A DNA stretch of 43,738 nucleotides, counting the filler, from Catajapyx aquilonaris (taxonomy: Eukaryota), in NCBI GenBank assembly GCA_000934665.2. It is 2 parts of 2 records of this genome, joined end to end, with 100 filler letters (N's around TTAATTAATTAA, not from the genome) between each part and the next. Parts side by side here need not be neighbours in the genome. Positions count along the whole stretch, not along the records: positions 21,900 to 43,738 come from JYFJ02005966.1; 1 more part is not named here. One strand, written 5' to 3'. Of this stretch, positions 18,301 to 42,361 are shown one piece after another. The translations under genes and the position numbers were made by a program. Within the stretch, counting starts at the first letter, position 1; each line of letters opens with the position of its first letter. Below the pieces are notes generated by a model, which saw only the letters and a program-made list of their open reading frames with translations, made no database searches and was not told the DNA's origin.

Positions 18301-19457
18301 CCGTTCCGTCCGGTGGATGCTCTTCCTCCAGGTGAGATTTCTTGTGTGTAATGTTTGGGCATGTACTAATTTCGAGTTAGGTTACCAAGGCGTCAGCTTC
18401 CGTCTGGCTGGGATGCGGTCTCATCGGATCATGACATGCGTACGGCAGAACTCTGATTCGTCCGACAACAGCGAGAAACCATTACTAGGCTCAACTCAAA
18501 GGAGGGGTGAATCACTTAGCAGCTACCAAAGTTCATCTGTGGGAAGCAGCTTTGACACTGATGGTATCCCATATCCGTTGCCGTTAGCGGCTGCCCATAA
18601 CAGTCCGGATGACCACAGACGTCATCCACTTCTGAGGGCGTCCACTGTTGGGGACTGTCCGGTTGGTGTGCATCAGCGCTCACTTGGAAATGGCATGCAT
18701 GCTATTTCTTTGGACAATCTTCGGGCTCAATGCAAGGTCAGTACTATCCCACCAAAAACTGCTTTCTGTAAAAAAAAGGCCAAGTTTTCCTGACTGCTTG
18801 GCCGTCAAAAGTGGTGAGATCTGAAATAATTGCTATAATCATGTTTAATTCCCAAAATTGCAGGGTTCCCTAACTACATCCGGTCGTGTACGTCACATGT
18901 CCAACCCACGATCATGTATGAAGAGACAAGATTCAGGATGCAGCGCAGACAGTGGAGATGGTTCATTAGCTCTAGGAATTGACCTAGTCGGTAACAACTC
19001 AGAACATGAGGGTCGTCGAGAACGGGACAGAACATGTCCCAGACAGGACTCTAATTTTAGTGACATTTCTCAGAGGACAGTGGACAGTGGGGTTGTTGCT
19101 GACTTGTATCCGGGAAAGAGAAAACAGAAGCTTCAACGCTTAAGGGCTGTGGAAGACTATGAGGATGTGTTGGTGGAAGAAAGTGCTATGGATGAGGACA
19201 CATGTGGTGTCAGTCGTGGTTGGAGTGGTAGACGTGGTAAATGGAAGACATCCTCCAGTAAGTCCACTTCTTCGTTCAAATTGGAGAATAGTGACAAACC
19301 GGCCGATGAGGAGGGTAAGAAGAAAAGATCTAGGGGTACTTCGGCTGATGGTGCCAAATATTACCATAGAGCAAAGGCCAATGAAATTACAGCCAGGTTT
19401 AAATCCAGTTTTAAGGCAAAGTTTCAACGCTCGTCTTTTAAAGCTACTCACACTTAA
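3382..19457 (+). CDS. GPR161: Class A (rhodopsin-like) GPCR, GPR161-like; 7 coding exons, ~809 aa
   Basis: Exons 3382-3466, 12400-12553, 16753-17140, 17197-17760, 18043-18331, 18381-18736, 18864-19457. All have GT/AG junctions with matching phases (1,2,0,0,1,0) and total 2430 nt. N-terminus MEDDNVT (N-glycosylation sequon); TM1 ...LVGSLANCLVFVVFYRRPALRSLSNR; TM2 FVLSLVSANLL (N at 2.50, as in GPR161); IAVDRYYAV; TM6 CWTPY; TM7 TPFIY. The SNRFVLSL and DRYYAVxxPxxYxMxIT segments resemble GPR161 as I recall it. Exon 1 is the least certain part. Confidence 0.8.
4550..5072. repeat. Tandem repeat, ~184-bp unit, ~2.8 copies
   Basis: CTGAGATACGTCATGGTTGTTTATAACTTAAAGAGCAAAATTT recurs at 4565, 4749 and 4932 with a few substitutions. 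Confidence 0.92.
5865..6041. mobile_element. Partial copy of the CACTCTTAACC MITE family (right end intact)
   Basis: Ends in GGTAAATGGTTAAGAGTG-TA and contains repeated TTACCTT/AAGGTA subterminal motifs. The left TIR is not recognisable, so the left boundary is approximate. Confidence 0.6.
15456..15530 (+). mobile_element. Fragment of the body of the same SINE family as 40349-40629
   Basis: TTTCCGCTTTATACCCGACATGCCGGGGCAGAATTGCACTCCC...AAAAGGTCTGG aligns by eye to the reverse complement of ~40457-40533. Confidence 0.75.
16445..16689 (+). mobile_element. tRNA-derived SINE, interrupted by the 48-bp MITE
   Basis: A-box-like CATAGTGGTTAGG, B box GGTTCGATTCCC (~16504-16515) and a (TAAA)n tail at ~16667-16689. 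The 5' boundary is approximate. Confidence 0.7.
16570..16617. mobile_element. 48-bp TIR-only derivative of the same MITE family
   Basis: Near-perfect palindrome CACTCTTAACCATTTACCTTCTCTAGAGAGGGTAAATGGTTAAGAGTG flanked by TA/TA. Confidence 0.85.
17831..17985. repeat. Intronic minisatellite, 30-bp unit (three related 10-mers) x5
   Basis: ACAGGTTCAA TCCTGTTCAA TCCGGTTTCG repeated within GPCR intron 17761-18042. Confidence 0.92.
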
Positions 19458-21799
19458 ATTGTTCCGTTGTCATGAAACTTGAAGAAAATTTTGAGCTCAT
19501 TTTTCTGTCCGGTCTGATGGAAAGTTGCTTTCATCAGAATGGTTGTGGGCAATTATACAACAGGTTTTTATCTTACATTGCCAACGACAATGCTCAATGG
19601 CTGTGTCATTACATGCTTCTCGTTTTAGCGTTGCAGAAAGTCAACTCAAGACCATTTCTTTTAGGGGACCAATTATTTGGTAAACAAAACACGCGTCATG
19701 CCAAACTGCTACACTTAGCAACTGTTATGTACACACCCTAGACAATAGGTATTGTCTAAGGTACACACATTTAAAAAAATTTCAAATATGTTTTAATGTC
19801 GATGTAAACAAAGGACTGACCACAAGACTTGTTTTGTCAGCGCCAAGATTATTTAAATGTTGATTATTCTCTATTTAACTCAATGTGATTGCTATTTAAA
19901 GCTGTTAAAATTTTTGAACTTTTAAATAGGCGTGTCACGTAGTAGGCCACTTTTTATTTTTAACTTTATTTTATCGTGAGATGAATAGGTCCTTGTCCTC
20001 GCAAGGTCATGCCAGCAATCCATGACGACAATCTCGACCTGACATGACACGTAATCATGAATTTTGTAGTGTTCGTACCGAGTGTGTCATTTAAAAAAAA
20101 TGGTTCATAGTCATAGTTCATAGACTATCCAAACTCAAAACCAGATGTTTATGTCGAATCCTCATGCTGGCCATGATGATCAATAGTTATTTATAAATCC
20201 TATTAGTAGGAAAGCAGATTCAATGCATGTAGGTGTTATCTATTTATTGGATTAATTTATTTAATGGTGTAACTTCATTGGAATAGTGAGCAATAACATT
20301 ATTTTCGGTGTCATAGACCAGATTACAGGGTATAAAAAATTAGTTTGATCGTTAATTGTTGTTCAATTTCTAATTTCGATTTGAAAAGTATTGCCAGTTT
20401 TAAATGTGTGCGGGGAAAATTATTGTCCAAATGCTTCATACAAAAAAAAAAAAAAAAATGTGCACAATATTGCCATTACTGATGTACAGAGTGAATTCAA
20501 GGTTCGTCCAGTCATACCTAGTCAATCTTATTTTTCTGTAAGTATTAGAGGTTTTTTCATAATAATATTTATTTATGATGGTGTTAATATTTGATGTGTC
20601 AAGTGACATTTTGTCTCCAAAAATGATGAAGAGAAGAATTGCTGGGGGAGGTTAGTATGAAATGGCTTCCATTGTGAATTGCAAAACTTGTGAATGGAAG
20701 CGCATTAAAAATGCACGATATTTTTGTACCTGTGAAGTGTGCAGGACTACCTGAACTATGGAATAAAGGCGTGGGACGTATTATCAGCACGAGTTTTGTT
20801 GTGGGTGTCATTGGAAGCCTACCTGATATTGGGAATTTAAAAAATTGCGGGGGCTAATTCCTCGAAGTTTTTTGATCTGTGAATGGCTCATGTGCCATGA
20901 GATGATAACGTTGTTGGTTTCACAATTTCTTGGTAATTCTACAATGAGGGGGAATTCTTAGAAAATTCTTTGAACGTGACAGATGGTCTGAAGTAATCCT
21001 CAGTTCGTAGAATGAGATGAAAATATTTCATTTATCAAGCTTTTAATCCAGGAAATGAGACGCGTAACTTCTTACTTACAGTCGATTTACCCGAAGTTAA
21101 TTAAGAGGCTTAATTATTTGTTCCAGGAATCATTTTGAAAACCTAACTTCATCTAATTTTGTTTACCACTCCTCTAAAGAGAAGCAGGCGGCTTTCTTTT
21201 CAGCCAACAACATAGCTCCCAGTAAATATTGACGCAACTTTGCTGGTTTTGTTTGGGACATCATGGTGACAGGTAAGTCTTAATTAGTTTTGATGCAATA
21301 AAAATAGCTCTCATTTTTGAAATGAATGATTCTGTGTGATTTTATGTAAATTTTAAGCTATGTAAAGCTATGTAAAGATATGTAAAGCTATGTAAATTTT
21401 AAATATTTAAGTATACCGCATATATAAGCTTGGTCTACATTAAGGGTCAAGGTTGAAACTTGTGGAGCTGGCCTGCAGAATAATTTAGAAGGCTTCAAAG
21501 TTCTTCCACTTCTCCAGAAAGTGGTATTTACCAGCCTTATTGACATTCATTCTGCCAACTAGCTGTCACATTAAGATGGACAAGCAAGTTTGTGTGCTCT
21601 TCCCAAAGCCAATTTCATCAAGGTGAAGGTTTAATAGTTTGAGTAAACATTACTAACACGGCCATATTGCTAGGATAGTTCGCATCTAGGAGAAAAAAAA
21701 AGGTCAGGATTTTTTTGAACCTGCCCTCAATTTTAAATAAAACCGGATTCTTCGGCCATTAAACCGAAAATCTATCAGCCGAGTACAAAGTAAGCTCAT

Positions 21800-21899
21800 N
21801 NNNNNNNNNNNNNNNNNNNNNNNNNNNNNNNNNNNNNNNNNNNTTAATTAATTAANNNNNNNNNNNNNNNNNNNNNNNNNNNNNNNNNNNNNNNNNNNN
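21800..21899. other. Artificial contig-joining linker / assembly gap
   Basis: 44 N + TTAATTAATTAA (21844-21855, stop codons in all six frames) + 44 N = exactly 100 nt. Confidence 0.95.
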
Positions 21900-21962: not shown

Positions 21963-22727
21963 GTGAAGAACGCAAGCAGCTGGTCATCCCTTGCTCAGGC
22001 AACATCTCCACAGTCAAGTGCATCAAGTACCAAACTGAAGTCAGTGATGGACAGTTTCCAGCAGTTTAAGAAGCAAGCAAAAGAGAAGGCAGACCGGCAA
22101 AGAGCGCTTATAGAGCAACAGGAGATGCGTCGTTATCAAAAGGAGCAGGCAGAAAGGGAGAGGCTACGAGCAGAGACTGAGAGGAGGAGAGAGCGGGAGG
22201 AAGAGGAGGCATTGGAGAGGACCAGGAAGGCTGCACAGGAGCAGCAGCAGGCCCAGCAGCAGCAACAGGCAAAGGCTGCCACACCGCCCCAGGTGGTTCC
22301 TCCAATACCCTCGCCTAAAGTGGCACCTGCTGTGGTGGCAACACCTCCTGCGGTGGTTGCTGTGAAGCAAAGTGCGGTGAAACCTGTGTCACCGGCAGGG
22401 CAAGCAACAGGGAATGGAGGGGGTGGTGGAGGAGGTAACAGTCCTGGGATGCAGAAGTCAGCAGCAGAAAGAGAAAGGGAGAGGCTCCGGGAGCAGGACA
22501 GGAGGAGGAGAGAAGCGGTGAGTAGCGAAGCATACAGAGACTGCCTATTTTCAGTTATTTATTTGGCAGTGATATTTGTGACGTGACAAAACAAGCTTGC
22601 AGTATCGGTGAACATTGAAAGGTGTTGGGGACGACAATAATGGCATAAATTTAATTTCCAGATGGCGGGGCAGATAGACATGAATATGCAGAGCGACTTG
22701 ATGGCTGCTTTTGAGGAGACCTTATAA
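21963..22727 (+). CDS. BRD4: BET-family bromodomain protein (BRD4 / fs(1)h long-isoform type), last two exons only
   Basis: Exon 21963-22517 (ag|GTG...GCG|gtgagt) encodes VKNASSWSSLA...DSFQQFKKQAKEK...ERERLREQDRRRREA. Exon 22662-22727 encodes MAGQIDMNMQSDLMAAFEETL*, the conserved BRD4 C-terminal (P-TEFb-interacting) motif. The bromodomain and ET exons are absent from the window, which has the contig linker immediately upstream. Confidence 0.92.
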
Positions 22728-26025: not shown

Positions 26026-27351
26026 TCAGTGGCAGTGCTCCGTGATGTCCACTACTACAGACTTCTTCCATCCAAAGACAAAGTACCCAAAGGCCGCTCC
26101 CAGTGCCACTGCCAGGCACAGCCACACGTTATATGTCATGAAGATAAGCATGAGGAAGTAGCTGAGCACCACTTGCACCACGTGGAGGAACGTCTGATAC
26201 AGGTGGATGCAGCTGAACATGTGTGTTCTGCCCGTAAAGAAAAATGTTTCATGAACTTGCACTGACCTCATTTTACCACAAAGAGACAGCAACCGAACAG
26301 ATGACAGTAGGCAGGAATAGTGTTAGGACTCCATATTTGCGCCTTGGAACATCACTCATGTTAGCCGTGCTTTAGTGGTTTACAAAACAAATCATGGGCA
26401 TGCTAGCCAAGATGAAAAGCCCTCCGCAACAAAGGAAAACCCTTCAATTTGTGCACTTGCAACAATAATTGCCCACGAAAGGATTCTCAATGTTTCCAAC
26501 ACATACTGAATATTAATAAATTACCAACCTTTTAAAAACGAGTTCATAATAATTATTGTCCTACATAAGGGCAAACTTGCTTCACAACAAGACTGATAAG
26601 CTCGGCACAAAAGTGGGGATGAGAACCACATAGGTGAACTTACACATGGAAGCCAAAGAGGTAGCTGTAGGGGACTCTGCTGGAATCGTTCATGTACTGG
26701 CACATGTCAATCGCTGATGGGCACTGCCCACAGTCACTCCCATGCTGGCAACCTGATGCCTTCCTGAACGCACACAGAGGTGGGAGGCAAGGGAAAGACA
26801 GAAAAACAGACAAAAAGTGGCAGGGGGAGAGCAGAAATCAGGGAAAAGACAAAGTCTACAAGCCAGTGGCAGGATACTCACGGCACTACTTTGGGCCCAT
26901 CGCTGACCACCACCCCCTTGTCATTGGGCACTGCAACTGAGCTGTACTCTATGCCCTGGTAGGTCTTGCGGAAGAGGTATTCCCTGTAGTACTTGAGCCC
27001 CTCATACAAGGCAGCCATGATGAAGATGCCAATCATGGATCCTAGTAACCCTCCTATACTGTTAACCTTCCAACCTTCGAAGAGTATCGTGGCGCTGCAG
27101 CCAGCATGAAAGTACATCTTCATCCCTCCATGGTCCATCCCTCCGGTACCGTTTTTGTCCATCCCACCGTGGTCCATTCCACCATGATCCATTCCTCCAT
27201 GGTCCATCCCACCGTGGTCCATCCCACTGTGGTCCATTTCCCCTCCACTGTGGTTCATGGAGTGCATGGAGTGGTCCATTTCGTGTATGGCGTGGCTGGT
27301 CCCCTCCGTCGTCGTGGCCATCCCCATCATGGCGTGGTGATCGTGGGACAT
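26026..27351 (-). CDS. SLC31A1: High-affinity copper uptake protein Ctr1 (SLC31 family), 223 aa (263 aa with the candidate cassette exon)
   Basis: Exons 27351-26882 and 26227-26026 join in phase 2 (cc|gtgagt ... ggcag|a). Met/His-rich ectodomain (MDHGG repeats), [18 protein letters not shown]2 MLIFM (MxxxM), TM3 GAAFG (GxxxG), C-terminal HCH. Confidence 0.96.
26644..26763 (-). CDS. Candidate 120-nt in-frame cassette exon of Ctr1 (Cys-rich cytosolic loop insert)
   Basis: ~80-nt polypyrimidine tract then ttcag| acceptor; |gtaagt donor; phase 2-2 with no stop. Translates as (P)[39 protein letters not shown](V). Confidence 0.6.
27120..27285 (-). repeat. Coding 15-bp tandem repeat (MDHGG)n in the Ctr1 ectodomain
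   Basis: Translation [39 protein letters not shown], with synonymous variation between units. Confidence 0.9.
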
Positions 27352-30300
27352 GTCTGCTGTCTCAGGAATCCTATTGTGTATTGTGCACTGCAACTGAGAG
27401 AAGGCCTTGGAATGAAGCCACCTTACCACCCACTAAAACCCAGTCTCTCTCATCCGCACCAATCACAGCCAATAATGGACAAGTGTCTCTGAACTGAACT
27501 GTTTAAAATTCGCCCCAACTCCACCCCCAACCTTCCTCCCTGCCTTATATCCTGCCTCAAACTGTAAACCATATTTCCTGCCACACAGAAAAGTCAGAAA
27601 GCACCCTTATCTAGTCTCAAGGACAGGGTTTTATCAACATGGTGGGAAGGGGGGAATACACATCTGCTGATTATGAAACTGGAAATAACTTAAATATTTT
27701 TGCCTCCCAGCATCATCTCAAGACCATCCTATTGTTCTCAAAGGCAAAGCATTCCATTCCTGGACATGTTTTGGAGGTGGGCAGCACGTACCCAAATTCC
27801 AGGAATTCTCCCTCAAATGGAATTTCATTAAAGGCAGAAGGCTATGGAATTTGTGGAATTGCAGCGCAGGAAGCCGCTTTGGCCGCAATTTCCTCCTTAT
27901 CGCAGGATTGGGGTTTGGCTCACAAACGGATCACCAGTTGATCGGTTGCAATTATTTGCCTACATGTGGCAACGACTCAGGCCAAATAGAGCATCACGGG
28001 AAAGCACTGGGAACAGATGCTTCAGCAATTTGCTTACTCAGTCAGGCGTGCATGTCAACAGCCTTGCATGACAACCATGACAAAAATGTAAAAATAATCT
28101 GATGTGGCTATGAGGCAAACAATAAGGCGTCATATGGTGATAAGAAATTCCCACAAAGCTCCCCGAAAAATATGTCCAGTTAATAGCACTGTACAGCATT
28201 GACAAATATGTACATAAGCTGCCAATAATGTAGCTGTTTGCAAATTTCCAAATGAATACTGCATGGAGGTACTGCCCTTAATCTTTGCTGAACATATTGC
28301 CACATGCTTTGACGCAGTTGATCACAGTTAGCACAGGTGCACCTTGTTGGGGCACATTGTAGCTGGAAAAACCACAGCACTTGGGGCTTCGAGCTGGCAA
28401 TGGTTAGCTATTGTCTGGCTTATCTCCAACATGTGGTTAAACCAAAAACCCACTTCCAAGCTCCTGTGGCTCCACAAAAATTTATATCACCATTTTCATA
28501 AGTCGTATAAGCTATTCATGAAGACACATGCAAGGGGCGAAAAAAGGGTCTTGGCCTTGAAGAGATAAATTCTGAAGGATGTTGCAAATTCCCACTAAGG
28601 CCGTCCCTGCAACATTGTTACTTTCATATCTGCATTTGATTAAAATAGCAAGTGTTGATGCAGCAATACAATGTGCTAAGAATAAGATCAATGACCAAGT
28701 AAATACTTATTGTATAGGGATGAGAATGGGATAGAATTGCTGATGTTTAGATAACGCTGTGTATATGTAAATGCAGTGTGACATTTTCCTAATCAATGGT
28801 GCATTGTGTATGTTAACTTATTACTTTTTGAAAGAAAGGTAGACCAAACAGGATTTTTTTTGGGGGGTCTACTACCAGTGCCTTGCATTTCTGCTATGCT
28901 GTAGGTTCACATTTTGGCCATACGCCCTAAAATGGGGTCAGATTTGTTTCGATAAGCTGTGTTTTTTTGTTTTTTTTTCAATGTTAGTTTACTCTCACCA
29001 ACAGATGCAGGAATGGTACTTACACAAAACGAAGATTACATAATTGGCATAAACCTAACAAAATGGTCACACAGATTTAAAGGTCTAATGCATCCTAATC
29101 CTATCTATTATCCTTGCCAGAAGGAAGACAGAGAAGTTTGCACCTGGTGTATCCATTTCAGAATCACTAGGATAAGGAACAGTTCGGCAATCTTACTGGA
29201 GAGATACACTTGCACTCTAATGAGTGGTACATTATGCAAGGAAAAACCTGCATCAAGTAACTTAATTTCACAACCATTACGTGACGTGGCTGCGCAGTTG
29301 GGTACATCACATGTTCTTATCTCTAGTGAGGACAGAGGTCAATTCAGATTATTGCAGAAGCCCCCCAATTGCAAGGAATGAAACAACCATGCTTCTTTTT
29401 AATCCACTCTAGTGCCTGTATTCTCAAACCGAGCTGACAGGCTCTCAAAAGATGGAAGTTCAGACATAGTTCACATGGTGCTGTGTTTCTGAGATTATTT
29501 CTCTGTCCTGTCAAAACAAGGTTGCAAATTGAGAAACAGCGACAAAAATTTTCAAAACGTGCAATGATCTGTCAGTGTCAATTATTAGTTTATACTTTAT
29601 AAGATCAAAAATTCCAGAATTCCACTTGGAATGATTCTTACTGAGGCACACACATCACGGTTAGTAATGATACAGGCCTACAATAGAGCAAACTTTGCAA
29701 GTATTTCTAATTATCATCCGTAAAACAGCATGATTATTTTTGTAATTGCTGGCTTGGTGCCACATATGATGTTTCAGAAATCAAGTTATTGATATACAAA
29801 TATTAATATCAACAGTTTAATGATATAAATAATATCTATGATATAAATAATATCTACAGTTTCATTTGAGTTTCAGTTTCCTGCCACTTGATAATATTAA
29901 AAATGTATATTACATTTAAAAAAATTAAATCAGAAATTCAAGATTTGCCTGGACAGCCTTGTTTTTATTACAGGACAGTACTGTATTGTTAACAATTATA
30001 TTTTGCTAATTATTTTTGTTGACGTCTTAATGGTATAATTTTAAAATGACACTAACCTAACCTCCCTAAGTTCCTAATGCACTTACATGTAGGCCTAACT
30101 GATCAGTTTCTCCATGTTGCATAGAAATGTGTATGATCCTAGAAATCCTTATAAAATGGATCACCCATCTGTCAACCTCTTTCCCTGTATTTTTTGGTCA
30201 CGACAAATGGCTGATTAGTGAAGCATACTGTATTTGGGGAGGAAGCCAGTCCATGCCCCAAAAACTGTCCATTCCGAATGGGTTTTCACCACAGAAGAGT

Positions 30301-30939
30301 CCTTACAACCCTCGCCAAGGCTCGACATTAGGCAGCTGTTGTCTTCCCAGTAAATCAATCAGTTTTTGCATAATCATTGCAGGCTTGGGCAAAAGATTAA
30401 CCAAAAATGCCTCACCACTTCCCTTTGAACCGTCTGAAATACTTATTCAAGCTACAATTTTACAACTTGTTTTCTTAAAGACCACCAAATATGACACAGT
30501 GAAATCTGGCTCCAGCAGACCCTGGATTCCCTGGAAACGCGCTGAATGCAGACTCCGAGTCCCAGTGGTTGATTTTCAATGCACGTCTGTCCCATTATAT
30601 TCTTTTACTAATTCCACGGAAGAGAGCATACAGATTCCACTGATTCAGTTTCCCTCCTGATCTCCGCTCTACAACACTGACTTGCATTTTTGATTTTAAT
30701 TCACCCCACACCCAACCAACATCCACACTTTGTAAACATATGGGACATGGCAAATGTTGTGTGAAGAGCTCCAGTTGTCCCTGCACATTCAAAATGCCAA
30801 AGGTCTCCCTTCCCAGAGGCAGTAAATAGGGGCGTGCCAATAGAGTGAGGGGCATGAAATATTGAAGGTGGCGAGAGACAAACGGGCAGCATATTGTGGG
30901 GGTTTGGACAGATGGGAAATTATGCTGCACTGTGGAACG

Positions 30940-31790
30940 ATCAGCTGACGTAGTGTTTCCCTTCCTTACCTGGCAGTGACTCGGGTGTCTGGGCTGCGGG
31001 CTTCAGCGCCTAGCGAAGGTGGACGGGGAGGCAGGAGCAGCAGATGTTGCCCTCGCCGTCTTCCCAGCACCATCGGCCATCTCTCCGTCTCTCGCCTACC
31101 TACCTCCAGCCAGACCTCCTCCGCCTCCTCATTTTTTCCACTCTCTCCCCGCCCCCGCCCCCATCCACTTCCAGCCTCCCACCTCCCTCCCTCCCACCCT
31201 CCACCTCCACATTTCCCCCGTTGCCAGGTCACACACTCACGCAAATCGCAGGAGGGACATTAACACACCCACTTTATCACGTCGTCTGTACGTTTCACTA
31301 CCATTCGAATTACAGCTGCAATTGGCACAGGAGAAACGATGAAATTCTTACCTGTCCAAGCTGTCCAAGTGTCGATGAGGGCGGTGTGGATCTGGCAACC
31401 TGCGTTCCAAATTAAGATGGCGGCCGAGTGAGAGTGGAGCTGGCGCACGGGGTGGTGTGAATGCAGACGAGATTTACACACACCAGCTGAGCTTGTCGTG
31501 TGGGCTGCGTTGTCAGGAGCGGTAGGTAGGCAGGGAGTGAGGGTACGGACCGACGCGGCTGGCATTGCTTGGCTGTCGGCCGAGTTGTGTCGATCGCGAG
31601 GATCTTGTTGTGTGTCCAGTCACGTGACGGCAATAAGTGACCGGGAGGAATGGATGGTCGCGGAAGAGAACTTTACTGACAACGCCTTCACTTTGCAGGG
31701 ACTGTCTCGAGTGAAGAGGAGGAGGGATGCTTTTCGGAGGGGACGACGACGATGCTGACTTTACGCTTCCAACAGGCGGAGGAAGGTGGG
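30940..31790. promoter_or_regulatory. CpG/GC-rich putative bidirectional promoter and 5' exons shared by Ctr1 (-) and FKBP15 (+)
   Basis: GC- and CpG-rich island inside CpG-poor flanks. Minus-strand splice donors cag|gtaag at 31352/31351 and 30970/30969 (candidate Ctr1 5' exons). YY1-type AAGATGGCGGCC at 31414-31425; palindromic E-box GTCACGTGAC at 31619-31628; FKBP15 ATG at 31727. Confidence 0.75.
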
Positions 31791-34700
31791 TTGTCTTTTT
31801 CAGGCGGAATGTGAAGGACAGCCACTGCAGGCTATAGTCTAGACTGGTCTGGACTAAGGCCTGCAGGGCATATGCCAAAGGTTACAGAAGTAATGAAAAA
31901 TTATCTCAGAGTTAACTAATCACCAGTGGAAAGGACTTTGTCATTCCCTTTGTGTGAATGGTACTTGCTGGACATCAGAGGACAGCGGAGTGGTTAGCTC
32001 CACAGATTTCCACCTCAGAGGTCGTGAGTTCTAGCCCTGGGTCAGAGAAAGGACACTTCTCATGTGGAAACAGTTTTTATGGGACATCTCCATGTCACTT
32101 GTGGTTGCTCTGGGATCTCACGTTTCCTGCCACAATCAAAATCCATCAAAGCACAGTGAATATTTAAAGTTGTTGATTAAAAAAGAATCCCCGAAAAGGC
32201 AACACCTATCATGGAGTAACTCTTCTGATAAATTAATTAAAATGTGCAGCACATCCTCTAATGCTTTGGAGTTGACACCATATAATATACCATCACTGAC
32301 TCCTAATGTAATAATTGATTCATTATGATGCACGGAACCACACAAGCTCCTTTGCAACATTGTCAATGCTACTTTTTTTCTACAATTAGTAGATCACGTA
32401 GTGGTATGGCTCATAATGAGGAAACAACTTCATGAATCTGGCATGCACTCCTTTGTAAATTCAGATTGAATTTTACTTAAATCCTCATTATTCCACCATA
32501 AACCCAGTGTACATCTAACCAAGGACCTTCCTCTTCACTGGATCTGTATTATTTATGAAGTTACTGACTTCTGTGATGACAATTTTATTGCTTGGGTAAT
32601 ATTTGTGCACAATTTTCAGCTCAAAATTGGCCTCACTGTTTGGAATCGGTCAGGAAAAGGAAGAAGGGAACTCGAGCTTGACTTACATGGCCCCAAAACA
32701 GCCTAAAAAGACCCAGGTAGAAAACACCCAGAAATCCTCGAGGGAAGGACCTCCAGCCCAAATGAACGTCATGCATGCCGTTGCAGTGAATGCCTACAAA
32801 CTGTAAGCAAACTGTCGTATAGTTGCATGGTTCTGCCTGTAACTCAGTGTAATTTGTGTGTAATTCGTTTACAGACAAGATGGAAATTACTCACCAGTTG
32901 GGAAGTTGGGAGCTGCCATACTTGGGAATAATGATATTTGCATCTATCAACTGCTCCTCTACAGAGGAAAACAGGAACAAGTTGCAGTTGCTAAAATTAA
33001 CATGACATTCCAGTTCATGGTAAGAGCTCATAACTTTATTGAAGCATGTTGTGTGAATCAGTGCCTTCCAAATAAATACTTAATTATGGTAATTCCTTTA
33101 GCACCATGATAGCTAAATGTTAAATATTGTATACTTCCAAATTAGTATTAATAATTTCCACATGCACTGAGGAAGCATTATTGCTTTCCTTTGCATATGA
33201 GAGGTCTGAGATAAAAAATATCCAAGTCCACTGTTGGGGGGTCCAACACAAATATGTGCCGCAATTATGTATTTTAATGTCATTGGGTATTAACTGCACA
33301 TTTGTGTACATACCTGCGGCAACATACATACGTAATAAAGTTTCAAGATTTCACCAGTGAAAGTTGAATAATCATCAGTTTTTGCTTCTTTTACGACCAA
33401 TTTTTTCAAGTGGACTGGGTGGTTTTTGATCTCAGACCCCCATATGATGGTTGATATACTGAATGAGTGTTCACTAATTAAAAGCTGCCATTTATGAAGT
33501 TGCTTTTAAGAATTGTGCACACACAATTTTATTTCAGCTTGGCTTTTCAATTCAAAATAATGCCCCCTATCTATGGCATCACACTGGTATTATTACATTA
33601 TCATTACACCCTGCAGATCTCTTGTGTGTGTGTTTCACAATTACAAATTAGTTTAATATTAACCCAGTTATCTTTATTTTTTATTTTTTATTTTTTATTT
33701 TGGAGAGATTCATTGTGGACGCCCTGGTATAATTTACAAAAATGTAAATTTCAGCCTTGGTTTGTTATCAGCTGAAATGACACAACAGTTGACTTAGGAT
33801 ATAACAGCCTTGGTTATAGCAAACTGAATTCTGCGGTCCCTTGAAGTCTGTTACATCCTGAGTGTACTGTGCATTGTTTTCATAGTTGTTGATGGTTAAT
33901 GGTCCCCATGGTTGTTAAGCTGGAGGTATGCACATGTAATTACTTGCACAGTTTTTGATACAGTAGTGTGAGTAATAATCTTACTAATGGCATATTTTAA
34001 GATTGTTGTAATTTATGCCACTGCTCTTAAAATTTAGGGTTTGCTTGAAAATTATTCCAGGTGCAGCCAAACAACTACACCAGCTTTTATGACAACCAGA
34101 GGCAAAACTGGTCGATGATGTTTGACTCCACTGCTGACATGACTGAATTTGCAAAACAAGTTGCTGTTGCCAAAGTCAACAGCCTGGATGGAAAACTGGA
34201 GTCAGTTGTTATTCAAGATGTGATCTTGGGTGAAGGACCTGAAATCAGTTCTGGCAATATGGTGGAAGTTAGCTTTACTGGATGGATATTTGCTAACAAG
34301 GAGCTAGGAGAGGTTTGTATTATTTTACAAAGTAATGTGCCTAGTTTGGTAACCCTCAGTTCTTTATGACGAAGGAATTCCCAGCCCATACATCCTTGAG
34401 AAGCTAGGGAAAAAATTGGTGATTCCAGTGGTGTCAAAATATCTCCCTGGTGAGGTTGGTCACTTGCATAATCAGGTGTACCCTCCATTGCATAATCACA
34501 TTCCTGAGCATGCTCCAATTCTTTATTGAACATGATTGTGTGTACTCTGTTCGTAATAACTTTACACTTTGAAGAGGAGAGCAAACTCTCCTTGTTAATT
34601 CATTTTTATGTTTTTTATTGAGCAGCGTACTGATTTCTCTTGTTTATTTGGGTTCATTGCACAGTAGATGAAGCAGTACTTCAGTAGTAATGACAACTCC

Positions 34701-37700
34701 CGTTCAAAAGACTAATAGTGCATTTATATTGAAGGAAATGTGGAGTGAGACTGAAGACTCACCATCACCAAAACAAACCTCCCCTTGAACAGCAAAACCT
34801 TGTTGTCAGGAGATTAGGCAACTGTTGATAACAACTATCCCCATTGTGCTCGGGCATCAAAGCAATCAAATGTTTTCTGGCACAAATAAATAAAAAAACC
34901 AATGCAGTGATTACACTGGACATGTTATTCCACGATCATTGCACCCACATTATATCACAATAATCCAGAACTATGCTTGAAGTCTTAATATGTTATTAGT
35001 TATTACCTCATACCAGAAATAGCTGTATAGCCTGACCAGAAGCTAAAGAGAGTTGGTGGGTTTTTCCCATCAACCCAAAATCCCCCACCCCCTCGAAAAT
35101 GCCCCACTTCCGGACAATCTTAATCCGCAAAAGGGTTTGGAAAGGTCAGACCGGAATACGGTGTTGCCCATCAGCAGTACAAATCTTGGAACAGGTCGTG
35201 CGGTCGTGTGCCCTTATTACAATTTCTTATACGTATAATAACCACAGATCCACAATTACGGCAACGTCTCCTTTTAAACTGACCTTTCCGAACCCTTTTG
35301 CGGATTAAGATTGTTGGGAAGTGGGCATTTTCGAGGGGGTGGGGTGGCTGTGGGGGATTTTGGGTTGATGAGGAAAACCCACCAACTCTCTTTAGCTTCT
35401 GTTCAGACTATAACCCTCTTGGTCTTACCAGCACAAGGTACAGTTGAACCAAAACCGCCCAAAACTAATGAAACTTTCGAGGTAGGGGAGGAGAGATGGG
35501 GGTGTGGGTGGTGTGGATTATGCGAGAGAGAATAAGAGTGTCCTCTTCGTTGGGAGGAGAGTCTGCTACTAAGCCCTCCACTACATTATGTTTTTAGCAT
35601 CACTGCCTTCTAATTGCACTCCCACTGCCACCACTCCTGAGCTCAGTCAGGCTCTGGGAAAATGACAGCCTGCAATGCCAAACACCTGTTTCCATTGACC
35701 CAAAATGCAGGGACAATCCTGCAGGCAGATGGCATTTGACATCTGCATTTGGTGACATTGCATGGCTGGGAGTGTCTGAAGTGGCGTGGTGACAAAGTGA
35801 TTTACTGCCTTTCAGAGTCTATAATTTGAGAGTATAGAACAGTGGTTCCCAACCTTTTTGGGGTTGCAGCCTCCTTTTATGATAGTCAAGTAACCTGCGG
35901 ACACCCCCCCCCCCCACCCCACCCCCCACCCCAACCCCAACTCGAGTATTTGTCGTAAGATAAATGTAGTGTAGGCATTAAAATCACATGCAAGTCTTTT
36001 TAAAAACCTTTGTTGTGAAATTTCCCATACAATTTATTGCAAGTAAAAATAACCACAGCCACCCCCTCGACCCCCTAGGTTGGGAACTGGTATACATAGA
36101 TACATTTTGTACAAACCTCACATGTCAAGATATCAATAATGACAATCTCAGCATGTCCCCACTATTGCACAAGTCTTATAAAAAATTTTATTTTTTAAAA
36201 ATTAGCCCTTTGCTGTAGATCAACTCCAACATGAGCATGCCAAGCAGGCTCTCCTCCCAACGAAGAGGGCTTTCTTATCCTCCCCTTGCATAATACATTC
36301 CACCCATTCCCCCATCTCTCCTCCCATACCTCTGTGTGTTCATTAGTTTTGGTTGTACTTCGGGCCACTTGGACCAAAAGTTGTTACATCAACCAGGTGA
36401 AGTGACTCTCCAGCACAAATGGAATGTGATGCATGTGGACATCTTGAGTTTTGGAGGCATATGAATTTGGTGTTTCCCCCACGTGGCTGCATTGATTTAG
36501 TGACTGTCTTGTAGTCAGATTTCTAAGTGCAAATGCTTTAAGAATTGTGGAGGAACGCTTTAAAATTTACATCCTGTAACAACCAATGCACTACTTGTAA
36601 TGCCACTTGAAAATCAATATGGATAGATATTGGGATTTTGAAATAATACTTAATGATATTTATTGCTGTTGCAGGTGTTTGACAGCACTGCAAATGGTCA
36701 GAAACCATTACGCTTCAGACTGGGAAAAGGCAAAGTAATGAAGGGCTTGGAAGAAGGCATGGTTGGCATGCGTAAATCTGGAAGGAGAATCGTTGTTGTG
36801 CCACCACACATGGGATATGGGAATCAGGTATGTTAGCATTTCTGCATGAGTATGTACATAATTAATTGTTACATACTTTACAATGTTACTTGCTTACCAG
36901 GCAGAAGCCAAAGTTCCAGTGCATTCCACCTTGGTGTATGACATAATAGTTAGTAACACCAGGCCTGGGAAGGAGAAGGATCCATCTGGATTGTCAAGAT
37001 CAGAAACACCTGTGACTCAGGAAGGTGACAAGAGTGGGAGGTACTTATCCAAGGCTGATATTGCTTGATGATAGATAGTTAAACATTAATATGGTCTCTA
37101 CCGTATCTATAAGTGAATTCACTCCAGCTTGGAGTATGGTAAAGTGGCGTTATATGCATAAAAACAAGCTTAACAAAACTTGCAGTCATAAAGTCTCCAA
37201 TGACTTATTACAATAACCAGCTCTGTTGTTATCCTTTCACTATGAATGAGCAGGCCCTGCTAAAATTAGTGACGAATTTACTAAAAATAACTACAAGTAG
37301 CATGTAGTCATCATTGCTGATAATTCACAGAACCATGTACGGTACTGTAGATGATAATAAATTCATAGGTTTCAAAGTATATTAGTAGCTACAATTTGGC
37401 ACTTACATGAATATTCACAGAGTACAGTGGAATCCTCCTATACTGTAAGCACATTGGATATAACCCTTTCAGCGCCATGTACCGAACGGTCGGTACTAAG
37501 CAAGTAGAAAGGTCGGTCCCTTCATATTTCCAGCAGCACCCTAACTGACTCTAACAGGGCATTTTTTTCCTTCCTTTTACCTGAATCTGAGCTGTTTTAA
37601 GGCATAAACAGGAAGCAGGCCTACCCTACATAATTTGTCAAGATAGTGTCACAGCTAGGTGAAAAGTCTGGACCAATAATTCTTTTTGGCATTGACTGCC

Positions 37701-40700
37701 TGTTGGTACAGGGTTCCTAAATTGTTCGTAACTGCCTTCCCGCGTCTGGACAACCCATCCCAACCTCCCTAGGACTCCTGCGAGGGCGGTACACTCTAAT
37801 TAAAAGACTTCTAAGAAGTCATTTTTCAGCTTTGAAACCTGCTCCAGTTTCCCCCTACCTCCCCGCCCCTTGTAGCTTACGTCAGGTGGAAGGTCCGGTG
37901 CAAATGATGAATGGCAGTCTCTTTTTCAAATTAGTTGTGGAGGATAAACAAAATGGGGTTAATTTATTGAGAACATTTGAAAACATCAACACTTGTGCAT
38001 TATGTATCATGACATGCTATTTTATGCCATTTGTGTGTGTGTGGGGGGGGGGGGGNGCCTCCCCTAGTTATGCCAATGTGACTTGAATATAAATTCCTTT
38101 CAGTTGTGACAGGCTATTTAGCTAGATCAAAATTTTGCACCATAAAGAGGGCCAATTACAGAAGGTAGCCGTATTGTGTGCCATATATTGCCAGGTCTTC
38201 CTAGACCAGAAACATGTAAAAAGACATTATTTCGTACAATTATCTACTTGCTATTTCACCACAGTGAAAGAATGTTAGCTTCCTGAAGTGAAAGTGGCAT
38301 ATAAAGCCTTTTCAGAAAGTTTTTACTTTCTGGTATCTAAAAGGAAGAATAAATAATGCAGAGCTCACTCCCACAAAAGTTGTAGGTGTGGAAAAATTAT
38401 GTTAAATCCTTGAAATTAGGTTATCCTTGTATGAATAATTATCAATTCTTAGAATAGTACCAGTGTCAAAAATCCTTCATTGTTAGTTGGATTTTTGAAA
38501 TGTTTGACTGTCATTGTTGCCCATTGTGATGTCAGAACTATTCTAAGGCTAAGTACATTAGATTAGAGCAGCCCCCGGACACTTATATTGCAGCACAATA
38601 GAAAAGGCTGTGCCGTTATCTCTTCCCACCCAGGTGCTAGTGTATTCCCACTGGAATACTACTCGCTGCATCATAACGACTGGAGACCCTGACGGTACAA
38701 CTCTGCATTAACACGTGCTACTGATAGCGTTACACCAAGACGGCTGCCGGATGCACCCAGCAAGTAGTATTCCACACCTTGATTCCATTGCAGATATACT
38801 AGCACCTGTGGGAAGGGTTAACAGCACGCAAGATGACGGCGAGTGTCCCGACCTATTCTTCTAAGACCATGGAGTAGACTGATACCAATATGTGTTATTT
38901 TTTCAGTGGTGAAGATGCTACCGTGAAAGCCAGAAGTGCATCTCTATCCGAGGCTTTGAGCAGCAGTCCAAAGTCAAATAAGGCACACATAATATCCCGA
39001 ATGGCTCGAATGGGCCAGGCTACTCTCCCTATGCCAAGTCATGTGACTTCTCATCCCAGTGATTCTTCTGAAAATGAAGTAAGTTGGCCTACATTTACTT
39101 GTACATGGGACTTCTAACGATTACCTTCACATTGGGACCATTATTTAAAGTAAGAGGGCATCCTTTTTCTGATGTTGTTGGCATGGAATACACAGGTATT
39201 ACAGGCCAATTAAAGATGAAATCTGTTGAGGGAAGCAATGAGATAATATTCTGGGGACATGTGGCTGGGAAGGAAATGCAAGTGAGAGGTGTTTCTGTCT
39301 GCTGCTATCTGCTATGGTGTCAAATTCCCAATGTTATGGCCAATGCAGATTGATACAACCAGTCCTACTTTCTAAAAATAATGTAGGATGTCCCTATAGT
39401 CAGTTCAGATTTGATGATATAATACAAGAATTGTGAAACAACCAGCTTATCAGTAGTATCCTATCCTCCCCAAAGCAACAGGTTATCTCATTATGACCAC
39501 TTGGCGTTGAGGCAGATAATCTGCAACTGTCATGTGAGTCATGTAGAGAGGAAGGTTAGTAGTGTTTGTATTTTGAGGCATGACTGACCCACAAGAGTAA
39601 GTCAGCAAATAATGTACCGTACCCTATATTTTAGAGGGCAAATGATTGCACTCAATGCAACAAAAACAATGCTTCTCTAAATGTACCTCTCTCTNCCCCC
39701 CCCCCCCCCAACCCCCCATCCCCAACTCAGTCCAGTAAACTTGTTGCATTTGCCATGACAGTACACTGGCAATGGAAGGATCCATTTTGCTTTGTAAAGT
39801 CTCACTTTTTTTTTACTGTATCATGAAATAGGAAGCATTTGAGTCAGGACTGTAGTTTATGTCTGACACACCATTTAATGCAACTCTAGTTTTAAAATAC
39901 AGATAATATGGTCACTGTGTACAGAATATTTCAGAGTTGCATGACATTTGACGTGCCATTTTTAGGCACTTGAATACACCGATCTGTTGCAAAATATATA
40001 ATTTTGTTTCATTTGAACATTCACTCTCTCATAATTAAGGCATCCCAAGCCAGAATGGTCATGTTGATGCAGAGAACAATACTTTGGTTTGTGGCACTTT
40101 TCAGTTATCAACATAGGTGGTGTTACCTTGTATGGTTCTGGCACTCTTGGGAACGACACAAAACATCAAATGATGGTCCCAGCAAATTTCTATAGTGTTA
40201 GCATGAAAACAGACAATTTCAGTATTTATTTAGGAAATATTGCTTGTTATAGGATGTCACTTAAAAAAAAAAAAATTATTGTACCCCGTTCTCAGTCCTT
40301 GGGCTCTTTTTAGGGGAGTGGGATACCACCATTTGTTGGAACCATATATGTATTGTTACCCCGTGCTCGAGCCATTGCGGCTCGTTTTGGGGGGAGGGGG
40401 ACAGTTCCCAAGGGGGGGCATCCACGGTTTATAGTCACTCACGACTCTCTCAGATCACCAGACCTTTTCTCTGGCCCCGGGCAGCTAAGGGAGTGCAATG
40501 CTGCCCCGGCGTGTCGGGTGAAAAGCGGAAAAAGACCCGGCCAAGCAGAGGTGACGGGGACGGGATTTGAACCCCGGCCTCCCGCTTGGCTAGCCAGTGG
40601 CGTAACCACTAGACTACCACGCCTCCCTATGTTGGAACCATATACTGGATATGTTTAGTTGTTCCAAGGGTAAGTAGGAGGGGATGTGCAAAGTGCAAGT

Positions 40701-42361
40701 GCAATGTCATATATTGGTCATTTTGTGAACTCCCCCGGGTGGATTAGTCTAGCGGAAATTTCCACCCGAGACGAAGCCAGAGATGGCCCAACTCTGCACG
40801 AGATGAAGGGGGTGTCCCCGGGCTGGGCTCGAACCCGGGACCTTAACATCCGTGGGTGCGTTACCACAGCACCACTCCGCCTCCCTTACAGGATATCACT
40901 TACTCTCTTAATTGGTGTGAACCCAGACAACTACAGTATTTATTATAGAAAAAATCAACATTTTAATCATTAATCACTTGATCAGTGAATACAATCTTAA
41001 AACGAACCATAAACTGCCATGCCCTTTTCCATTTAGTGCCATGCCCACAAATTGGTTTCTGACCCATCCAGAGCTCTCCTTTGCTTGTTCTCCCAGTTCA
41101 ATGTGCAATTATAATTTGGTAATGTTCATCCCTTGGATTATATATGTGAGTGAGGGACTGTTATTTGCTTTTGTTTGTTAATAGTCAGCCCCCACGAACT
41201 GCCTTAATTGAATTCTTCTCCCTGGGAAGACTTGAATGTGATTACTGAGAACGATGAAAGGCTCACCAAGATGTGGAGTTGCGATGCATCTTGCATTTTA
41301 CACAAGGTACAGCCCCAAGCTAAAGTTGGGGATGCTGTGGGACTTCCCTGACCTTCCTTTATCCAACTAAAATTAATGGACTCTTTTTGGGCCAAGTTAG
41401 CTGCTTTAGGGCCCCTAGTCTGATGACCCCGGGTAAGCTATCCCGGGGGCAATCACCATGGCAGCATATGTAAAAGGATAGCAGTAAACAACCAGTTACC
41501 CCAGGGGGGCAAGCTACCCCGGGTCACCAGACTATATACCTATATAGTCTGGTGACCCGGGGTAGCTTACCCGGGGTCATCAGACTAGGGGCCTTAGGCG
41601 AATGTTTACGTATTTATAACCATATATTTGATACCGTAATGGTGGGGGTTGGCAGAGCACCCTGATGAAGGGGAGGGGCTGCTGTCTCCAACTTTATGCT
41701 TGGGACTGTACCTTGGAAATTATAATGTGCGAGACATGACAATTCAGTGCTTTGGTAAGTCGTGTGTCATACTCAGTTATCACATTGCATTGGGGTAACT
41801 GTAACAGTGTAATGGATAGGGTTCAAATATGGCAGTAGGTGAGAGCGGCCCTGTAACAAAAAATGTATGGTAATATATGTGCAGTAGTTCTTAAAAACTA
41901 GAGTTGCACCTCTTGGTTAGTACTATTGTTCATCTAATGCAGCCTTTTCTGCCATTTCTTCTCAGGAGGAAGGCACACATGAGCCTGTAGGTTTGATTCA
42001 CAAGCCTGCAGTTCGACCTCGTGCCATATCATCACAGGGCCAGCCTGCCTTCCAAACTGCTCCTCCTGCAATGCATCAGGAGCCGCTCCTTAGCCAGCAG
42101 CCGCTCCTACCTCAGCAGCAGCCACAGCCTGTGGCCATGTATCAGTCTCCCCTAAGGGCTGGGTTCATGCCTGATGCAATGTATGGGATACCTGTGTCAT
42201 ACCAGAGTGTGCCCCAGGTGTCCACGCCTGTGCTCAACTCTGGTGGGGCTGCCATTGAGACTCATCTCAGTCTTCTCATGTCAGAGAGTAGATCACAGAA
42301 TACAGAGGTCAGGATTGCTGTCAGCAGAGTGTCTGATCGGTTGGAGCACATTATGAGCAAG
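31727..42361 (+). CDS. FKBP15: FK506-binding protein 15 (FKBP15/WAFL), first 8 coding exons (500 codons), 3'-truncated by the window end
   Basis: Exons 31727-31785, 32620-32802, 32875-33019, 34061-34312, 36675-36827, 36901-37040, 38907-39078, 41966-42361, all phase-compatible. Motifs MLFGGDDDDADF, KLASLFG, YMAPKQPKK, GKLGAAILGN, PNNYTSFYDNQRQNWSMMF, FKBP domain (VFDSTAN...LGKGKVMKGLEEGMVGM...PPHMGYG), KAHIISRMARMGQATLP and LMSESRSQNTEVRIAVSRV match FKBP15 as I recall it. Confidence 0.95.
31977..32130 (+). mobile_element. Degenerate tRNA-derived SINE in FKBP15 intron 1
   Basis: GCGGAGTGGTTAG...GAGGTCGTGAGTTCTAGCCC resembles decayed A and B boxes. Confidence 0.45.
35026..35412. mobile_element. 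Long-palindrome (foldback) MITE
   Basis: ~120-130 bp arms (TATAGCCTGACCAGAAGCTAAAGAGAGTTGGTGGGTTTT...GGAAAGGTCAG) are inverted at 35279-35412 (...CCAACTCTCTTTAGCTTCTGTTCAGACTATA), with TA/TATA ends. Confidence 0.88.
35411..36386. repeat. Two diverged ~150-bp copies of one repeat in inverted orientation (35411-35567 and 36243-36386)
   Basis: CCAAAACTAATGAA...GGGAGGAGAGATGGGG...CCTCTTCGTTGGGAGGAGAG is matched by its reverse complement in the second copy. Confidence 0.8.
35840..36089. mobile_element. hAT/Charlie-type non-autonomous element
   Basis: Left end CAGTGGTTCCCAACC; degenerate right end GGTTGGGAACTG; imperfect 8-bp flanks GTATAGAA / GTATACAT. Confidence 0.7.
38578..38850. mobile_element. 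Degenerate inverted-repeat element (MITE-like)
   Basis: GGACACT..CTTCCCAC..CAGGTGCTAGTGTAT..TGGAATACTACTCGCTG is mirrored by CAGCAAGTAGTATTCCA..ATATACTAGCACCTGTGGGAAG..AGTGTCC. Confidence 0.7.
40349..40629 (-). mobile_element. Young full-length tRNA-derived SINE with a 15-bp target-site duplication
   Basis: Minus strand reads GGGAGGCGTGGTAGTCTAGTGGTTA (A box)...GGTTCAAATCC (B box). Flanked by the direct repeat TGTTGGAACCATATA at 40334-40348 and 40630-40644; CpGs are retained. Confidence 0.88.
40722..40886 (-). mobile_element. Second tRNA-derived SINE (different body)
   Basis: Minus strand GGGAGGCGGAGTGGTGCTGTGGTAA (A-box-like) and GGTTCGAGCCC (B box), followed by a non-tRNA body. The 3' boundary is approximate. 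Confidence 0.65.
41409..41593. mobile_element. PIF/Harbinger (Tourist)-like MITE with nested palindromes
   Basis: 31-bp TIR GGCCCCTAGTCTGATGACCCCGGGTAAGCTA / TAGCTTACCCGGGGTCATCAGACTAGGGGCC, flanked by TTA on both sides (one extra G on the left). Internal hairpin at 41511-41568. Confidence 0.8.

Follow-up and report, generated by a model that had tools for sequence, protein, structure and literature searches.

The window analysed here is a stretch of 43,738 nucleotides from Catajapyx aquilonaris (assembly GCA_000934665.2), whose right half is one complete contig of 21.8 kb (C3605) carrying the 3' end of a BET gene on the plus strand, the copper transporter gene Ctr1 on the minus strand, and FKBP15 on the plus strand. 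Ctr1 and FKBP15 stand head to head, and we consider it likely, with a probability of about 60%, that they are a microsyntenic pair inherited from the protostome-deuterostome ancestor and kept together by a compact bidirectional housekeeping promoter. On this reading, a known human bidirectional pair would be pushed back from tetrapods to the bilaterian ancestor, with the addition of an arthropod lineage close to insects, though Drosophila lost FKBP15.

Identity and arrangement of the two genes

The start codons of Ctr1 and FKBP15 lie 4,376 bp apart and the genes diverge from them. The gene models and the Pfam and profile matches confirm this head-to-head arrangement and agree with the orientation and coordinates given by the initial annotation. 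The coding exons are the following.

26882..27351 (-): first coding exon of Ctr1, with the ATG at 27351, a Met/His-rich ectodomain, transmembrane segment 1 (TM1) and a loop; Pfam Ctr
26026..26227 (-): last coding exon of Ctr1, with TM2 and its MxxxM motif, TM3, the C-terminal HCH and the stop codon; Pfam Ctr, E 1.9e-17
31727..31785 (+): FKBP15 coding exon 1, with the acidic N-terminus typical of the family
32620-32802, 32875-33019 and 34061-34312 (+): FKBP15 coding exons 2-4
36675-36827 (+): FKBP15 coding exon 5, with the FKBP_C domain
36901-37040 and 38907-39078 (+): FKBP15 coding exons 6-7
41966..42361 (+): additional FKBP15 exon with approximate boundaries; the gene continues past the contig end

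The Ctr1 coding sequence (27351-26882 joined to 26227-26026) encodes 224 amino acids and is interrupted by one GT-AG intron of phase 2, whose position is identical in homologous loci. Both exons match Pfam Ctr, the protein matches the solved Ctr1 chimera (PDB 6m97, E 5.9e-28), its best matches are insect Ctr1A proteins, and the Ctr family was the sole return of an ESM Atlas search. The features that define the Ctr1/SLC31A1 high-affinity copper importer are all present in the translation, namely the Met/His-rich ectodomain, MxxxM in TM2, GxxxG in TM3, and the C-terminal HCH, which forms the end of the protein in 208 of 214 Ctr homologues. The genome has two Ctr loci, and the other one, a Ctr2-like gene on contig C159, is 48% identical to Ctr1 and lacks the HCH. 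By these features, it is the window gene, the only Ctr1-type gene identified in the genome, that is the orthologue of human SLC31A1, rather than the Ctr2-like paralogue. In a 40-row Ctr tree, built without vertebrate SLC31A1 or SLC31A2 rows, the window Ctr1 groups with winged-insect Ctr1A and one other protein (support 97/91), so its sequence places it as an arthropod gene near those of insects. Identity with Strigamia maritima was rejected, since the two exons agree to 49% and 72% only. The ectodomain contains about seven G-x-M-D-H-type repeats (27120-27260, minus strand). The window gene has no intron before TM1; loci L071, L044 and L066 are among those with an intron there.

FKBP15 begins with the ATG at 31727, and seven GT-AG exons (31727-39078) give an open frame of 368 amino acids. 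A profile made from 21 FKBP15 proteins matches eight exons of the window in collinear order, the first of them weakly (E 0.42). The translation has the features of FKBP15 (WAFL/FKBP133): an acidic N-terminus, a SKLASLF-type motif, the N-terminal domain, FKBP_C, and collinear downstream motifs. The contig carries roughly the first two thirds of the gene; the C-terminal coiled coil falls past its end and was not found. The PF23649 profile matched neither the genome nor the controls and is thus uninformative. A search of the genome with the FKBP15 exon returned a single match, the gene itself, and a tree did not settle its place among arthropods. We identify it, on its sequence, as the single-copy orthologue of human FKBP15. 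Orthology of both genes, which the initial annotation had left to be confirmed, is thus borne out by the trees, the single copies and the profile matches. Inverted-repeat elements seen by eye in the FKBP15 introns (35030-35410 and 41410-41600) are probably small non-autonomous transposons.

A hidden gene between Ctr1 and FKBP15 was considered and rejected: none of the 15 open reading frames (ORFs) of the interval reached the Pfam cut-off, the Rfam search gave no match, and the repeat matches elsewhere in the genome are short only (60-140 bp).

The CpG-rich patch and the start of Ctr1 transcription

The features of the intergenic interval are listed below; o/e is the observed/expected ratio of CpG.

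30930..31800 (no strand): CpG- and GC-rich patch, candidate bidirectional promoter by its GC-skew flip and composition
31149..31160 (-): two tandem GC boxes (GGGCGG)
31379-31384 (+): third GC box
31414..31424 (+): exact YY1/Pho-type 11-mer, sole copy in the window, 0.01 expected by chance
31352..31420 (-): predicted non-coding exon 1 of Ctr1, ending at CAG/GTAAGA; its 5' end is a guess
27394..31351 (-): predicted first intron of Ctr1, 3.96 kb, o/e 0.33 against 0.34 in the FKBP15 gene body
27388..27395 (-): best acceptors upstream of the Ctr1 ATG, with AGs ending at 27394 and 27388, the most pyrimidine-rich of 12 AGs; putative use
27459..27473 (+): two CCAAT boxes, candidate rival proximal promoter about 110 bp upstream of the Ctr1 ATG, o/e 0.13
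31522..31698 (+): possible intron in the FKBP15 5' untranslated region (UTR), with weak donors at 31522/31526 and a pyrimidine-rich acceptor ending at 31698

The CpG-rich patch sits at the FKBP15 end of the interval. It measures 871 bp, with a GC content of 0.576, 56 CpG and an o/e of 0.77, compared with 0.35 in the remaining contig, and among 420 sliding windows of 871 bp the top 10 all overlap with the patch. The initial annotation had described a CpG-rich island of about 850 bp; its length stands, but it is an island relative to the CpG-depleted gene bodies only. It is not a vertebrate-type island, because neither the other contig of the window (o/e 0.73) nor C159 (0.67-0.96 in eight 10-kb pieces) is CpG-depleted. 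Gene-body methylation is established in arthropods, and the patch is best read, from its composition, as an unmethylated promoter flanked on both sides by methylated gene bodies. Across the patch the GC skew passes from negative to positive, with the cumulative minimum at 31366, and such a switch is the pattern of bidirectional promoters. Neither a TATA box nor a metal-response element was found in the patch, which has three GC boxes of the kind common in GC-rich promoters. Control of the pair by an MTF-1-type factor was rejected, since metal-response elements show no excess (2 observed versus 2.7 in shuffles). The ATG inside the YY1-type motif opens a four-codon ORF (31417-31431, plus strand), which would belong to the FKBP15 leader or not according to where transcription starts.

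The patch holds three minus-strand donors, at 31351, 31103 and 30969. The first (CAG/GTAAGA, GT from 31351) agrees with the U1 consensus in 8 of 9 positions and is one of four AG/GTRAG sites on the minus strand of the contig, two of which fall in the patch. It lies 375 bp from the FKBP15 ATG, within the 400 bp noted initially. With this donor the leader is free of ATGs for all five acceptors tested; 31103 and 30969 give 4-6 upstream ATGs if the start is set at 31300, and for that they were rejected as main Ctr1 donors. The interval 27400-30800 has an o/e of 0.33, compared with 0.34 in the FKBP15 gene body and 0.73 in the other contig, a depletion that fits a transcribed, methylated intron. These signs suggest that Ctr1 transcripts start in the patch and favour a bidirectional promoter with start sites less than 1 kb apart; the 5' ends of Ctr1 and FKBP15 would be within 375 bp of each other if donor 31351 is used.

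Alternatively, Ctr1 may start at about 27400-27550, leaving the patch to FKBP15 alone and making the adjacency a passive relic of slow rearrangement within one ancestral linkage group. The two CCAAT boxes (27459 and 27469) would suit such a start, donors of 8/9 quality arise by chance about 0.5 times per kb on the minus strand, and a second part of the vertebrate neighbourhood is also close here, the Ctr2-like paralogue abutting ALAD. However, the proximal region is the most CpG-poor (o/e 0.13) and has a usable acceptor, the 3.4-kb interval resembles a gene body, the skew flip and the ATG-free leader point to the patch, and the human orthologues share a promoter. We regard a separate Ctr1 start as improbable.

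The pair in vertebrates

Human Ctr1 has a non-coding first exon and a long first intron, like the model proposed here. Human FKBP15 and SLC31A1 are divergent and separated by 270 bp (PMC2871058, supplement file 6, row 480) or 244 bp (PMC3815023, supplement), which agrees with the close 5' ends stated in the initial annotation. A third source places FKBP133/KIAA0674 (FKBP15) 201 bp upstream of hCtr1 and attributes a copper response to common Sp1 sites, as an unpublished result of its authors (PMC5983780, section 4.2). The Catajapyx pair therefore resembles the human pair at 9q32 in its two orthologues, its head-to-head orientation and its CpG-rich interval with GC boxes, with 5' ends predicted within about 375 bp compared with 201-270 bp. 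The two differ in that published conservation of the human pair ends at tetrapods (human, mouse, chicken and Xenopus only, in the PMC2871058 table) and the host here is an arthropod; in addition, the Catajapyx start sites are predicted ones, Ctr1 has a BET gene downstream of it, and the Ctr2-like paralogue is found beside ALAD on another contig. Outside tetrapods, Callorhinchus has the Ctr and FKBP15 orthogroups together (XP_007898373 and XP_007898375; PMC8851819, supplement).

Depth of conservation among invertebrates

To survey the depth of the pair, protein records were compared by scaffold length and by accession order, the latter a proxy without strand, and one published table was added. 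In the spider Parasteatoda, FKBP15 (XP_015907329-36) and Ctr1 (XP_015907338-42) are both on one contig of 102,656,114 bp. In the brachiopod Lingula, Ctr and FKBP15 are on one scaffold of 60,491 bp (LFEI01001578), and their gene identifiers are consecutive (g30650 and g30651/2; PMC8851819, supplement). In the starfish Acanthaster (NW_019091381.1), FKBP15 shares block 948 of the same supplement, in which blocks permit up to 5 intervening genes, with three Ctr genes. Both genes are on one chromosome in Ptychodera and Tubulanus, with distant accessions, and their UniProt accessions are 16 apart in Strigamia (T1J224 and T1J240).

Robert et al. 2022 thus already place the two orthogroups side by side for Lingula, Acanthaster and Callorhinchus, in blocks 948 ("Planulozoa novel") and 8489 ("Vertebrata novel"), and FKBP15 also appears in block 8489 for Latimeria. 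This listing differs from our observation in being an automatic table without orientation or comment (PMC8851819, supplement file 4). Block 948 consists mostly of Ctr genes in tandem; among its 43 rows listed, FKBP15 occurs in 2 of 9 species and no row is from an arthropod. Saccoglossus, Ciona, Acropora, Exaiptasia and C. elegans are present without FKBP15 among these rows, so for cnidarians nothing shows the pair.

The FKBP15 survey covered 15 named species, and 5 of the 20 clusters were unnamed. Araneus, Owenia, Gigantopelta, Argopecten, Ornithodoros, Dermacentor albipictus and Priapulus had no Ctr record and were left out of the tally. For insects there were about 80 named Ctr1 records and no named FKBP15, hence no scaffold comparison.

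Several observations weigh against an ancestral pair held by a shared promoter, besides the chance frequency of the donor given above. Of nine invertebrates, two have the genes adjacent, one has them in a common block, three (Ptychodera, Tubulanus and Strigamia) are undecided by accession or chromosome, and the remaining three are negative in what was seen of them. In Limulus and Anneissia, Ctr and FKBP15 are on different scaffolds, with one copy of each seen, and the Branchiostoma Ctr block is without FKBP15. The adjacency in Lingula and Parasteatoda is indicated by accession order, which gives neither strand nor spacing, and the 5'-5' orientation is known in Catajapyx and four tetrapods only. 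In the PMC2871058 table the row of the pair holds no teleost, Daphnia or Drosophila entry, though these and Ciona occur in other rows. FKBP15 was found by tblastn or profile in none of 74 metagenome Ctr loci, of which only 7 have at least 5.8 kb upstream, most being transcripts or too short. On one compact, arthropod-like metagenome contig (L071), Ctr1 is head to head with a DENN-domain gene.

These data could also mean that the genes met independently in vertebrates and in Catajapyx. The patchiness of the pair (three of nine species negative as far as seen, and other upstream neighbours in L071 and L066, the divergent Ctr neighbour in the latter being a potassium channel) is compatible with this, and a re-meeting becomes more likely where both genes stay on a common chromosome, as in Ptychodera and Tubulanus. 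Against it, the genes are adjacent in vertebrates, in two lineages of arthropods and in a brachiopod, and they fall in a common block in a starfish. A linkage group has several hundred genes, and the odds of re-meeting would be about 1 in 250-500 each, or about 1e-5 for two, as a rough estimate. Lingula and Parasteatoda largely refute chance convergence, which we regard as very improbable indeed.

Since the genes are so unlikely to have met again independently in vertebrates, in arthropods and in a brachiopod, we infer that the pair is ancestral and has been repeatedly broken, with patchy retention; the pairing probably dates from the protostome-deuterostome ancestor, more than 500 million years ago. 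Of the ancient linkage supposed in the initial annotation, the adjacency is thus indicated in a spider and a brachiopod, but it is broken or not seen in several lineages.

Ctr1 in L071 is also tail to tail with a voltage-gated calcium channel gene (L071:2342-13054). Human DENND1A and CACNA1B are on 9q33-34, and these neighbours suggest shuffling within one ancestral linkage group.

Why the pair may persist

An inherited pair would be explained as follows. The first exons of Ctr1 and FKBP15 would share one short, unmethylated, TATA-less housekeeping promoter, and for this reason the genes would have remained neighbours since the protostome-deuterostome ancestor. Ctr1 would start near 31400 on the minus strand, its transcript being spliced from 31351 to 27394/27388 over about 3.96 kb before the coding sequence opens at 27351, and FKBP15 would start on the plus strand at most about 375 bp away. 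Both genes are broadly expressed, and a rearrangement cutting the short shared interval would be costly, as it would damage one or both promoters, so separation would be slow, and the pair would mostly survive until FKBP15 is lost or one of the genes moves. The shared promoter, the start sites and the promoter lock as a cause are predictions from the features above, and such a lock does not require a joint function of the two proteins.

Pairs of this kind form a recognised class. Irimia et al. 2012 (PMC3514665) describe 595 conserved ancestral microsyntenic pairs (CAMPs), which are enriched for the 5'-5' orientation, 55% being 5'-5' in human. Ctr1 and FKBP15 resemble CAMPs such as HSPD1-HSPE1 as non-paralogous neighbours across distant phyla with 5'-5' orientation and short spacing; unlike HSPD1-HSPE1, they are not known partners and their retention is patchy. 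Their occurrence in vertebrates, arthropods and a brachiopod would agree with the CAMP definition, with the invertebrates placed by accession order and Acanthaster contributing a common block only.

Copper uptake and endosomal recycling

A functional regulon would give the pair another reason to persist. A copper-sensing promoter with Sp1-type GC boxes would raise FKBP15 together with Ctr1, and FKBP15, with retromer and WASH, would return Ctr1 to the surface when copper falls. Much of what the initial annotation stated on this point holds in the published sources: once copper is washed out, CTR1 is brought back to the surface by retromer (PMC7473646), and FKBP15 is a retromer/WASH accessory that binds the retromer-WASH assembly (PMC4024763, PMC12311110). 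A review also mentions, as unpublished, that FKBP133 is copper-regulated via Sp1 sites common with hCtr1 (PMC5983780), and the patch here has its three GC boxes. Both genes decrease together in one kidney-tumour set (10.1101/2025.01.07.630976), as any shared promoter predicts.

The claim that the pair was kept for this coupling has no support so far. In published assays, FKBP15 knockdown left WASH-retromer binding and CI-MPR retrieval unchanged, and FKBP15 is absent from fly and worm; in the available text of the CTR1-retromer paper, FKBP15 has 0 occurrences (PMC7473646). The literature search found no link of FKBP15 to CTR1 traffic, and the one paper in which FKBP15, copper and CTR1 were found to co-occur treats them separately. 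The Gene Ontology similarity of the pair is 0.23 (PMC2871058, supplement), the lack of a metal-response-element excess argues in the same direction, and the DENN gene facing Ctr1 in L071 would make an equally good endosomal story. Copper uptake may plausibly be coupled to endosomal recycling, but the regulon as the reason for retention seems unlikely to us. Slightly more doubtful still is the larger claim that the promoter is a copper-sensing bidirectional switch from the protostome-deuterostome ancestor and FKBP15 a retromer/WASH accessory dedicated to copper-dependent Ctr1 recycling.

The initial annotation left open whether this conservation is already described. The human pair and its claimed copper co-regulation are in print (PMC5983780), and the linkage in Lingula and Acanthaster stands unremarked in the PMC8851819 table. 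No text naming the invertebrate conservation of the pair was found in a search that mostly left subscription papers outside; the supplements of PMC3514665 and PMC13508932 may list it, and the two PMC13508932 supplement files searched gave no match. Since hundreds of head-to-head pairs with deep conservation are known as a class, the finding by itself is a modest one. It is valuable for where it points: the function of FKBP15 is not settled, retromer is needed for the recycling of CTR1, and common copper regulation is reported by one laboratory. If the neighbourhood reflects a common pathway, it would have a bearing on copper and cisplatin uptake.

Neighbouring loci

The Ctr2-like paralogue without the HCH is tail to tail with ALAD (L002:305-1680; about 59100-60500 on C159). 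One block of Callorhinchus contains both SLC31A1 and ALAD, at a distance of 11 accessions (PMC8851819, supplement), so another part of the 9q32 neighbourhood of vertebrates may also be of ancient origin. Matches to the PRP4 family are on C79 and C185, neither of which is a Ctr contig.

Downstream of Ctr1, positions 21963-22727 (+) hold the last exons of the BET/BRD4-type gene, with a weak BRD4_CDT match; this gene and Ctr1 converge, with about 3.3 kb of 3' UTRs between them. The ET domain of this gene maps to contig C2104 and not to the left contig of the window. The gap of 100 bases at 21800-21899, where N runs flank a 12-base filler, must therefore either be much larger in reality or mark a misjoin. 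The left contig (o/e 0.73) carries, at about 12400-19460 (+), a multi-exon rhodopsin-family G-protein-coupled receptor gene (7tm_1) with a long low-complexity C-terminal part.

On C159 (30001-70000; L004-L007), the Ctr2-like gene is flanked by Flotillin-like and QSOX-like genes, recognised from translations, and by F-box and fibrinogen-domain genes; several human relatives of these flanking genes are in the major histocompatibility complex paralogon.

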